Of a stretch of 64,000 bases of DNA, positions 62,237 through 62,999 are shown piece after piece (the first letter of the stretch is position 1; the number at the start of each line of letters is the position of its first letter). Where the stretch lies: sequence record PQ390715.1. One strand, given 5' to 3'. This DNA is from Escherichia phage SHEFM2K. The notes under the pieces are model-generated. The model searched no databases. It saw nothing but the letters and a program-made list of their open reading frames with translations, and was not told the origin of the DNA. Made by a program: the position numbers and the translations under genes.

Positions 62237-62515
62237 TCAAAGATTTTGTCGTTCATATAATCTCCTAATAAAATATTCTCGATTCTCTCTTATATACCCA
62301 GATACACAGTTAGTTGTGGCTTGGTTAGTGAATGAAATCTCACTATTGGACACGCCATTTGCATCACACAAAGGACATATTCCCATGTACTTGGGGGTCG
62401 GGTAGGTGTCCAATTTGTATTTTTCATTACACACCATGTACTGCTGTGGCAATACATCTAATATTATTTCATATTCTTCATCAAACACCTTGAAGCATAC
62501 CCAACATTTACCCAT
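62237..62515 (-). CDS. zinc-ribbon protein
   Basis: CWVC ... CPLC. Confidence 0.5.
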   Translation of the reverse strand: MGKCWVCFKVFDEEYEIILDVLPQQYMVCNEKYKLDTYPTPKYMGICPLCDANGVSNSEISFTNQATTNCVSGYIRENREYFIRRLYERQNL

Positions 62516-62999
62516 TATAGTTTTCCTTTAACACCGTTCTTATATATTCGAATGTTTTAACAAACCAATCATGTTCGTCGGATACATCTACAACTTTACC
62601 ACCATATACATAGTAATGGTAAAAAGGTAACTTGCTTTTTCTTAATCTTTCGGCTAACTCTGGATTTTGAATTATCTTAGCACAAATAGCATCTTGAATA
62701 ATAGAAATACAATCATCCGTCATTTCAATTCGATCATGCATATATTTGTTAGCGGCTGCTTTTGCTGCTGCACCAGATACTTTTCTAAGGTCATCATGTT
62801 TTTGCCCAGTTAAAAACCAAAAGTAAAATGTTTCAACTGAAGGGAACCAACCATATGGTTCAAGTGTGAAGCTATGCGAAGAAAAGTTAGATAGATCTCT
62901 ACCTAACTTAGTTCTAGCTTTACTATAAATGTTAATGTGTCGGTATCCATCATCAGTAGGGTCAATAAAGTCAAATGACTCTTCTGGGAACTCAAACAT
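62508..62999 (-). CDS. YbiA/NADAR-like (DUF1768) domain protein
   Basis: ..LSNFSSHSF..YGWFPSVETFYFWFLTGQK..RKVSGAAAKAAANKY.. parallels E. coli YbiA blocks (FSNF.., EHYFQAQKF, ..RRVSSPMVAARMGR..) as recalled. Confidence 0.5.
   Translation of the reverse strand: MFEFPEESFDFIDPTDDGYRHINIYSKARTKLGRDLSNFSSHSFTLEPYGWFPSVETFYFWFLTGQKHDDLRKVSGAAAKAAANKYMHDRIEMTDDCISIIQDAICAKIIQNPELAERLRKSKLPFYHYYVYGGKVVDVSDEHDWFVKTFEYIRTVLKENYNG

Follow-up and report, generated by a model that had tools for sequence, protein, structure and literature searches.

A very divergent NADAR-fold protein of Escherichia phage SHEFM2K represents a viral clade without the phosphate-binding lysine of described NADARs

In the 64,000-nucleotide stretch of Escherichia phage SHEFM2K analysed here (PQ390715.1; the window), a gene at 62508..62999 on the minus strand encodes a protein of 163 amino acids that a preliminary description had likened to YbiA/NADAR proteins and proposed as a counter-defence gene. 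We found that this protein is a genuine but very divergent NADAR fold and that, by sequence comparison, it belongs to a virus-centred clade, so far uncharacterised, that appears to be sister to T4 gp30.3/AdfN. The protein is probably an ADP-ribose-processing NADAR enzyme. The fuller reading, that such an enzyme would act in counter-defence with ADP-ribosylated guanine (G-ADPr) in DNA as its leading substrate, is drawn by analogy and falls a little short of probable. It has recently been established that NADARs reverse the ADP-ribosylation of nucleic acids and serve phages as a counter-defence against DarTG1, and the phage NADARs tested so far comprise only the T4 gp30.3 type and two of the canonical type. 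The SHEFM2K gene stands for a much larger viral clade (approximately 2,000 clusters at 50% identity and 500-600 sequenced phages), which includes Asteriusvirus and the therapeutically used Ackermannviridae and is unannotated in Pfam, NCBIfam, PHROGs and genome papers. This clade breaks one of the two 'universal' NADAR catalytic rules, as it has no Lys seven residues after the key Glu (Glu+7).

The fold assignment is carried by profile and structure comparisons. When a profile of 24 family sequences was searched against the PDB (hmmsearch), it matched 8BAU, the P. nicotianae NADAR with ADP-ribose (PnNADAR; E = 1.7e-4), and 2B3W, E. coli YbiA (E = 1.6e-3). An AlphaFold2 model built from the 24-sequence alignment had a predicted local distance difference test score (pLDDT) of 90.5 and a predicted template modelling score (pTM) of 0.83, and Foldseek returned three structures at a probability of 0.99-1.0 and all others at ≤0.05; structure prediction, which the preliminary description had suggested as a check, thus bore the assignment out. 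In BFVD, the first structural neighbours came from phages, belonged to the same clade and were uncharacterised; proteins of giant viruses and phages that carry the annotation 'NADAR domain' ranked after them. In profile-profile alignments (hhalign), 118 family members matched 113 YbiA homologues at a probability of 94.7% (E = 1.2e-8, 147 columns) and nine gp30.3 (AdfN) homologues at 98.0% (E = 1.1e-12, 130 columns). The latter match is comparable to that between YbiA and gp30.3 (E = 1.7e-12), and controls with reversed alignments gave ≤1.7%. Homology to known NADARs, by which we judged membership of the superfamily, was therefore found at the profile level. These profile, model and fold matches indicate that the NADAR fold assignment is correct and that the nearest described family is phage gp30.3/AdfN.

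We then compared the clade with the residues that define NADAR active sites. In described NADARs the key Glu lies in the first core helix (Pn E43, DarG1 E88, AdfN E36), and a Lys at Glu+7 (Pn K50, DarG1 K95, AdfN K43) binds phosphates, its mutation killing function (PMC11543638, PMC11257639). The pyrophosphate/adenine contacts of PnNADAR are K75, R79, Y84, D86, W89, R93, D130 and W133, and the family-defining residue of the last strand is Glu in YbiA, Asp in DarG1 and His in phage gp30.3 (PMC11543638, PMC11125620, PMC11257639). Conservation was counted in 118 standalone family sequences, with the fusion members (69) counted apart. E56, K80, H128, Y129, Y130 and N38 are invariant in the 118 (Table 1), and about 24 positions are invariant across family sequences that are only 30-98% identical. 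H128 (118/118) aligns with the diagnostic invariant His of gp30.3 (T4 H123), and Y129-Y130 align, after a 5-residue deletion, with the 'YW' of the YbiA D-x-Y-W-G motif. Further (near-)invariant residues are the clade's own: D17, G18, H21, K27, T30 and R34, which lie in an N-terminal motif whose 'INxYS' and 'G..SNF' elements are common to YbiA, and W61 and W145. Relative to gp30.3, these residues and Y129 and Y130 are all invariants of the clade only.

Of the described families, T4 gp30.3/AdfN (PF08010) gave the best profile-profile match. It and the SHEFM2K protein are both single-domain proteins of approximately 150 residues, and gp30.3 and the clade have in common the SNF loop, the catalytic Glu, the 'G..AK' helix and a last-strand His instead of Glu or Asp. 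T4-like phages carry 30.3 near or next to the ligase gene, and the position of one distant clade member, directly upstream of a gene for an ATP-dependent DNA ligase, resembles this T4 arrangement (30.3-30). However, BLASTP of the SHEFM2K protein against T4 gp30.3 found nothing at E ≤ 100, the protein does not match PF08010 (two clade relatives score approximately 20 bits against a cut-off of 36), and the essential K43 of T4 AdfN is replaced by Leu63. The two also differ in the phage groups listed for them: Asteriusvirus, Ackermannviridae and jumbo phages of Erwinia, Vibrio and Serratia for the clade, and T4-like phages for gp30.3.

The differences from E. coli YbiA and PnNADAR (PF08719; 2B3W, 8BAU) include an identity of 16-17%, the absence of a PF08719 match, Leu in place of the Glu+7 Lys, a 'TENDA' loop shortened by five residues, Y-Y instead of Y-W and, in the subclade that holds the SHEFM2K protein, the loss of the R79 and W89 equivalents of PnNADAR. 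The YbiA-type signature, a last-strand Glu (Pn E125) followed by a D-x-x-W-G loop, was not found; hhalign places the variable Y127 on that Glu, with a His beside it. Likewise, PF08719 was found in none of the 120 listed relatives and in every listed YbiA homologue. A housekeeping role as a YbiA-type N-glycosidase that detoxifies intermediates of the riboflavin pathway might be read from public names, since a few related phage proteins are named 'putative N-glycosidase' and two relatives are called 'YbiA (DUF1768 family)' by JGI. We consider such a role barely credible and rejected it: the family lies outside PF08719, lacks the YbiA motifs, is closer to gp30.3 than to YbiA and is nearly exclusively viral (a strict pattern scan of 185,579 species genomes found 11 cellular loci), and no riboflavin gene was found in any neighbourhood examined.

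Membership of the DarG1-type antitoxins (the BC4488 family antitoxin of DarTG1; 8BAT) was also rejected, because the Asp is absent and no DarT partner was found. DarG1 has its catalytic Asp (D171) two residues before the canonical Glu position, whereas the clade has His in its place and no conserved Asp in residues 124-128. The SHEFM2K protein also has no equivalent of Lys95 and no N-terminal extension of the fold, and, unlike the DarG1 operon, shows no adjacent DarT in the window, in the survey of viral neighbours or among 25 of the 47 families at cellular loci. By their defining features, the clade is outside all four described NADAR families.

By analogy with these families, the SHEFM2K protein would bind an ADP-ribosyl group and hydrolyse the N-glycosidic bond at ribose C1'', and would in this way strip ADP-ribose that host defence enzymes put on a base. 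By precedent, the likeliest substrate would be N2-ADP-ribosyl-guanine in phage DNA, made by DarT1-type toxins, and its de-ADP-ribosylation would let phage replication proceed. This role is favoured because G-ADPr hydrolysis has been seen with representatives of each of the four described NADAR families (PMC12945103, PMC11125620) and because the three phage NADARs tested, those of T4 (AdfN), Bas32 and Bas60, all counter DarTG1 (PMC11257639). Anti-DarT1 guanine de-ADP-ribosylation is thus the most likely single role by analogy, although it is weakened by the absent Lys, and as a specific assignment it is tentative and on balance doubtful. For the counter-defence interpretation of the preliminary description, this means that the fold stood and that the function is plausible by analogy but weakened by the loss of the Glu+7 Lys.

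Several observations weigh against this interpretation. Searches of Pfam (hmmscan) and NCBIfam with the single sequence were empty even at E ≤ 10, as was PADLOC, and phmmer of the protein against the PDB gave no match. Taken literally, the lack of a PF08719 match is the outcome that the preliminary description had itself named as speaking against its assignment; the likeness to YbiA/NADAR that it had seen by eye holds at the fold and profile level (PDB profile search, hhalign, Foldseek) and fails at the Pfam level. At the Glu+7 column, all 118 standalone members have S, L, G or A and none has Lys, which is found in 4 of the 69 fusion members and in 113/113 YbiA-family sequences, with Lys or Arg in 9/9 gp30.3 sequences. 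Function is lost when this Lys is changed to Ala, as in DarG1 K95A and AdfN K43A (PMC11543638, PMC11257639). In the subclade of the SHEFM2K protein (Asteriusvirus and relatives, 13 sequences at ≥45% identity), the equivalent of Pn R79, R84, is replaced by N, K or Q (N84 in SHEFM2K), that of Pn W89, W91, by I, V or L (I91), and K100 of the main clade by V or I (I100). No ADP-ribosyltransferase (ART) or DarT was found in a survey of neighbours at 48 viral loci (all 16 families found), among the Pfam families of the fusions or among the 25 commonest of 47 families at the 11 cellular loci, and the neighbours of the gene in the window were uninformative in Pfam and PHROGs. In one study, DarT1 toxicity was not rescued even by T4 AdfN (PMC11125620); activity in vitro is therefore no guarantee of protection in vivo. 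The substrate may also differ from that of AdfN.

The replacements in this subclade also include D90 to R, F97 to R, C or T and E85 to K. The coordinated changes fall in residues 84-100 (window 62700-62749, minus strand), the segment that makes the adenine/pyrophosphate contacts in PnNADAR (PMC11543638). With pocket geometry deduced from alignments only, the ribose side of the pocket appears to be kept and the ADP side to be remodelled, and the basic residues look relocated, from R84/K100 in the main clade to K85/R90 in the subclade, more than plainly decayed. Since the Glu+7 Lys is absent, diphosphate binding would have to come from other residues, for which the clade-specific K27 and R34 or the subclade residues K85 and R90 are candidates. 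The clade therefore bears on whether NADAR chemistry tolerates another phosphate-binding solution or whether the substrate differs.

DarG1 and AdfN depend on the Lys that the clade has lost, and the subclade has also lost the R79 and W89 equivalents. These losses would also fit a NADAR with impaired catalysis that is left with binding only: it could serve as a sponge or shield by binding ADP-ribose or ADP-ribosylated targets, or it could bind the toxin. We regard this as improbable, as the approximately 24 invariant positions, among them the ribose-site Glu and His/Tyr/Tyr, are typical of an enzyme, the basic residues are seemingly relocated and the fusion partners are other enzymatic domains.

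Fusions and neighbourhoods across the clade were surveyed next, and show that it is persistently associated with ADP-ribose-processing domains. Among 81 long family members, DUF4326 is carried by 26, a YAcAr SLOG domain by 20, a DprA-like SLOG match by 10, Macro and DUF488-N3a by 6 each, and a canonical NADAR domain and a metallophosphatase by 1 each. Fused or adjacent proteins at 48 non-redundant viral loci comprised SLOG (8), DUF4326 (6), AAA_33 kinases (3) and DUF488-N3a (1), and DUF488-N3a, Macro and AAA_28 each occurred twice at the 11 cellular loci. A 293-residue fusion member in Erwinia phage Ea35-70 is directly preceded by a Macro-domain gene, 'Appr-1-p processing' (L030:3998-5355, Ea357_151/152), and this pairing of a Macro with a NADAR-like gene looks conserved. 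A 293-residue structural neighbour in Erwinia phage RAY (BFVD) bears the name 'DprA-like protein'. DUF4326/SLOG/Macro-NADAR multidomain proteins of DNA viruses were surveyed by Iyer, Burroughs, Anantharaman and Aravind in 2022 (PMC9503650), and the presence of the domain in such viral proteins is thus already known rather than new. Many clade members have the same architectures as those proteins, whereas the SHEFM2K protein is a standalone domain; the survey does not, in its available text, single out the clade, its absent Lys or the HYY motif.

These partners raise the alternative that the protein hydrolyses a soluble, low-molecular-weight ADP-ribose derivative rather than a nucleic-acid adduct. 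Such a derivative might be an immune signal or toxin derived from nicotinamide adenine dinucleotide (NAD), or might arise as a by-product of NAD metabolism or of RNA repair, and the protein would work in a pathway with the Macro, SLOG and DUF4326/DUF488 phosphatase-like modules that are fused or adjacent to it in other phages. The recurrent partners are only DUF4326, SLOG, Macro and DUF488-N3a, plus the P-loop kinases AAA_33/AAA_28; one clade member lies within an RNA-repair cluster (RlaP, PNKP and RNA ligase); and the remodelled diphosphate/adenine subsite fits an altered ligand. Iyer et al. argue that phage NADAR/Macro/SLOG/DUF4326 combinations target diffusible ADP-ribose derivatives (PMC9503650), and YbiA itself acts on small-molecule N-glycosides in riboflavin metabolism, as cited in PMC11125620. 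However, no NADAR has been reported in the literature examined to cleave an immune-signalling ADP-ribose derivative, and every NADAR assayed cleaves G-ADPr on nucleic acids. Moreover, the SHEFM2K protein is standalone, no Macro, SLOG or DUF4326 gene was found by Pfam in the 64-kb window, and a Macro-NADAR fusion could equally be a dual nucleic-acid de-ADP-ribosylase. We therefore hold the hydrolysis of a soluble derivative to be unlikely, but the partner domains (SLOG, DUF4326 and Macro), the remodelling of the ADP subsite and the loss of the Lys make it a serious alternative.

One of the neighbourhoods points elsewhere. In a metagenomic phage contig, a gene for a 392-residue ART (ADPrib_exo_Tox; 5500-6678, minus strand) is adjacent and convergent to a family member, which is compatible with a self-protection or regulatory partner that reverses or limits ADP-ribosylation by the phage's own Alt/ModA-like ARTs. 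In T4, 30.3 lies a few genes from alt, and Iyer et al. describe NADARs as expressed early together with ARTs in T4-like phages (PMC9503650). We consider this role very improbable: the contig is the sole neighbourhood of its kind, there being no ART in the window, in the viral survey or among the 25 commonest families at the cellular loci, and the phage ARTs known so far act on Arg in proteins, a modification that NADARs are not known to remove.

Finally, the Lys-less 'HYY' clade might be a functionally distinct fifth NADAR family with a substrate outside the known NADAR range, for example an NAD-derived immune signal (Thoeris-type cyclic or His-linked ADP-ribose), a phosphorylated ADP-ribose derivative handled with DUF4326/Macro/SLOG partners, or an ADP-ribosylated base other than guanine or cytosine. 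We think this quite unlikely. If true, hundreds of jumbo and Ackermannviridae phages would carry an anti-defence enzyme of a new class; if the protein simply behaves like AdfN, the result would be an incremental extension of known biology. In either case the gene is a common one that is called 'hypothetical', and assigning its function is relevant to the prediction of phage host range.

The extent of the clade was assessed at several levels. At 50% identity, 2,061 homologue clusters were found at E ≤ 1e-3, of which 1,636 were at E ≤ 1e-10. PHROGs gave strong matches to phrog_652 (5.9e-45) and phrog_11222 (3.6e-31), both families of unknown function, and every public name given to this very protein or to its cluster is either 'hypothetical' or 'uncharacterized'. 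A 2025 genome paper on the near-identical phage Sharanji omits the gene and gives a protein kinase as its sole anti-DarTG1 candidate (PMC11895373). The clade is almost purely viral and occurs in about 500-600 sequenced phage records, compared with 1,511, mostly of T4-like phages, for the gp30.3 family. Records of T4-like, T5-like and Vequintavirus phages were absent among the listed tblastn matches of the SHEFM2K protein, even at E ≤ 10. The 11 loci in cellular genomes are a lower bound, and they look like prophages or phage contigs.

In two related phages the match to the gene is split or incomplete. It is matched in two tblastn pieces in phage G17 (MK327931.1, 98396-98883), where a fragment of 71 residues is annotated, and in phage CMSTMSU (MH494197.1, 217943-218245) only 63% of the protein is covered, with matches at two sites of the record. 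Either some Asteriusvirus isolates may have a disrupted gene, or sequencing errors may account for these copies.

In the window itself, the open reading frame (ORF) for 163 residues given in the preliminary description was confirmed exactly, with an ATG start and conservation in 1,227 homologue clusters at 90% identity. The window has a G+C content of 33%, and a stop-free run of at least 163 residues arose in just 0.1% of mononucleotide shuffles of a 4-kb piece. Over 3 kb, the window is 99.8% identical to NC_027364 (PBECO4/121Q-type jumbo coliphage, Asteriusvirus). The gene is a member of a tightly packed block of co-directional genes: the upstream ORF (63002..63355) ends 2 nt ahead of its ATG, and its last 8 nt are shared with the ATG end of the downstream ORF (62237..62515, minus strand), an overlap suggestive of translational coupling. 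The downstream product is a Cys-rich protein of 92 residues (CWVC ... CPLC, zinc-ribbon-like) that belongs to phrog_35738, a PHROG of unknown function. A scan for promoters and terminators was no better than shuffles (37 promoter-like sites versus 30.5 ± 5.5), so the timing of expression cannot be deduced from it. The ten immediate neighbours matched orphan PHROGs only, with no Pfam match. In the window as a whole, Pfam on 104 ORFs and hidden Markov models run on the six-frame translation detected neither another NADAR nor any gene for Macro, ART, SLOG or NAD salvage.

Table 1. Positions in the window of the gene for the NADAR-fold protein, its conserved residues and a putative ribosome-binding signal.
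Feature	Position	Strand	Basis or remark
Coding sequence of divergent NADAR-fold protein, 163 residues	62508..62999	-	Corresponds to PBECO4 ACQ29_gp432 / YP_009150746.1, annotated 'hypothetical protein'
Residues 17-39, motif D-G-x-x-H-I-N-I-Y-S-K-x-x-T-x-L-G-R-x-L-S-N-F	62883..62951	-	Conservation in 118 sequences and alignment with YbiA
Glu56 codon	62832..62834	-	Aligns with the ribose-binding/catalytic NADAR Glu; invariant, 118/118
Leu63 codon	62811..62813	-	Position of the essential phosphate-binding Lys (Pn K50, DarG1 K95, AdfN K43)
Lys80 codon	62760..62762	-	Invariant; aligns with PnNADAR K75 / DarG1 K115 in the 'G..AK..G(R)' helix (PMC11543638)
His128-Tyr129-Tyr130 codons, 'HYY'	62610..62618	-	Invariant; start of C-terminal beta-hairpin
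Putative Shine-Dalgarno AGGAG (coding strand)	63013..63017	-	Read from sequence; 13 nt 5' of ATG, within the end of the upstream ORF; low confidence

Elsewhere in the window, the gene at 55673-56533 (minus strand) matches PF00145 (E = 7.5e-38) and encodes a C5 cytosine DNA methyltransferase, which could have a bearing on how specific a DNA-directed de-ADP-ribosylase is, provided that the phage DNA carries methylation. The pyrimidine-dimer DNA glycosylase family (Pyr_excise/DenV) is matched by one ORF (E = 8e-15). A DenV gene is also found near a distant family member (923-1375) in the metagenomic contig that carries the ART gene (L004), and tblastn with the DenV protein of this contig gave no match to the DenV-like ORF of the window. 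Another ORF matches the nSTAND_NTPase5 and AAA families, and a sigma-like factor of 321 residues with sigma-70 regions 2, 3 and 4 (PF04542, PF04539, PF04545) is encoded at 30458-31423 (minus strand). RCC1-like repeats (PF25390, 37-47 bits against a curated cut-off of 150) were found in three tandem plus-strand genes (62-1078, 1459-2628 and 2957-3853), which are oriented opposite to nearly all other genes of the window, and a fourth RCC1-like ORF is also present.
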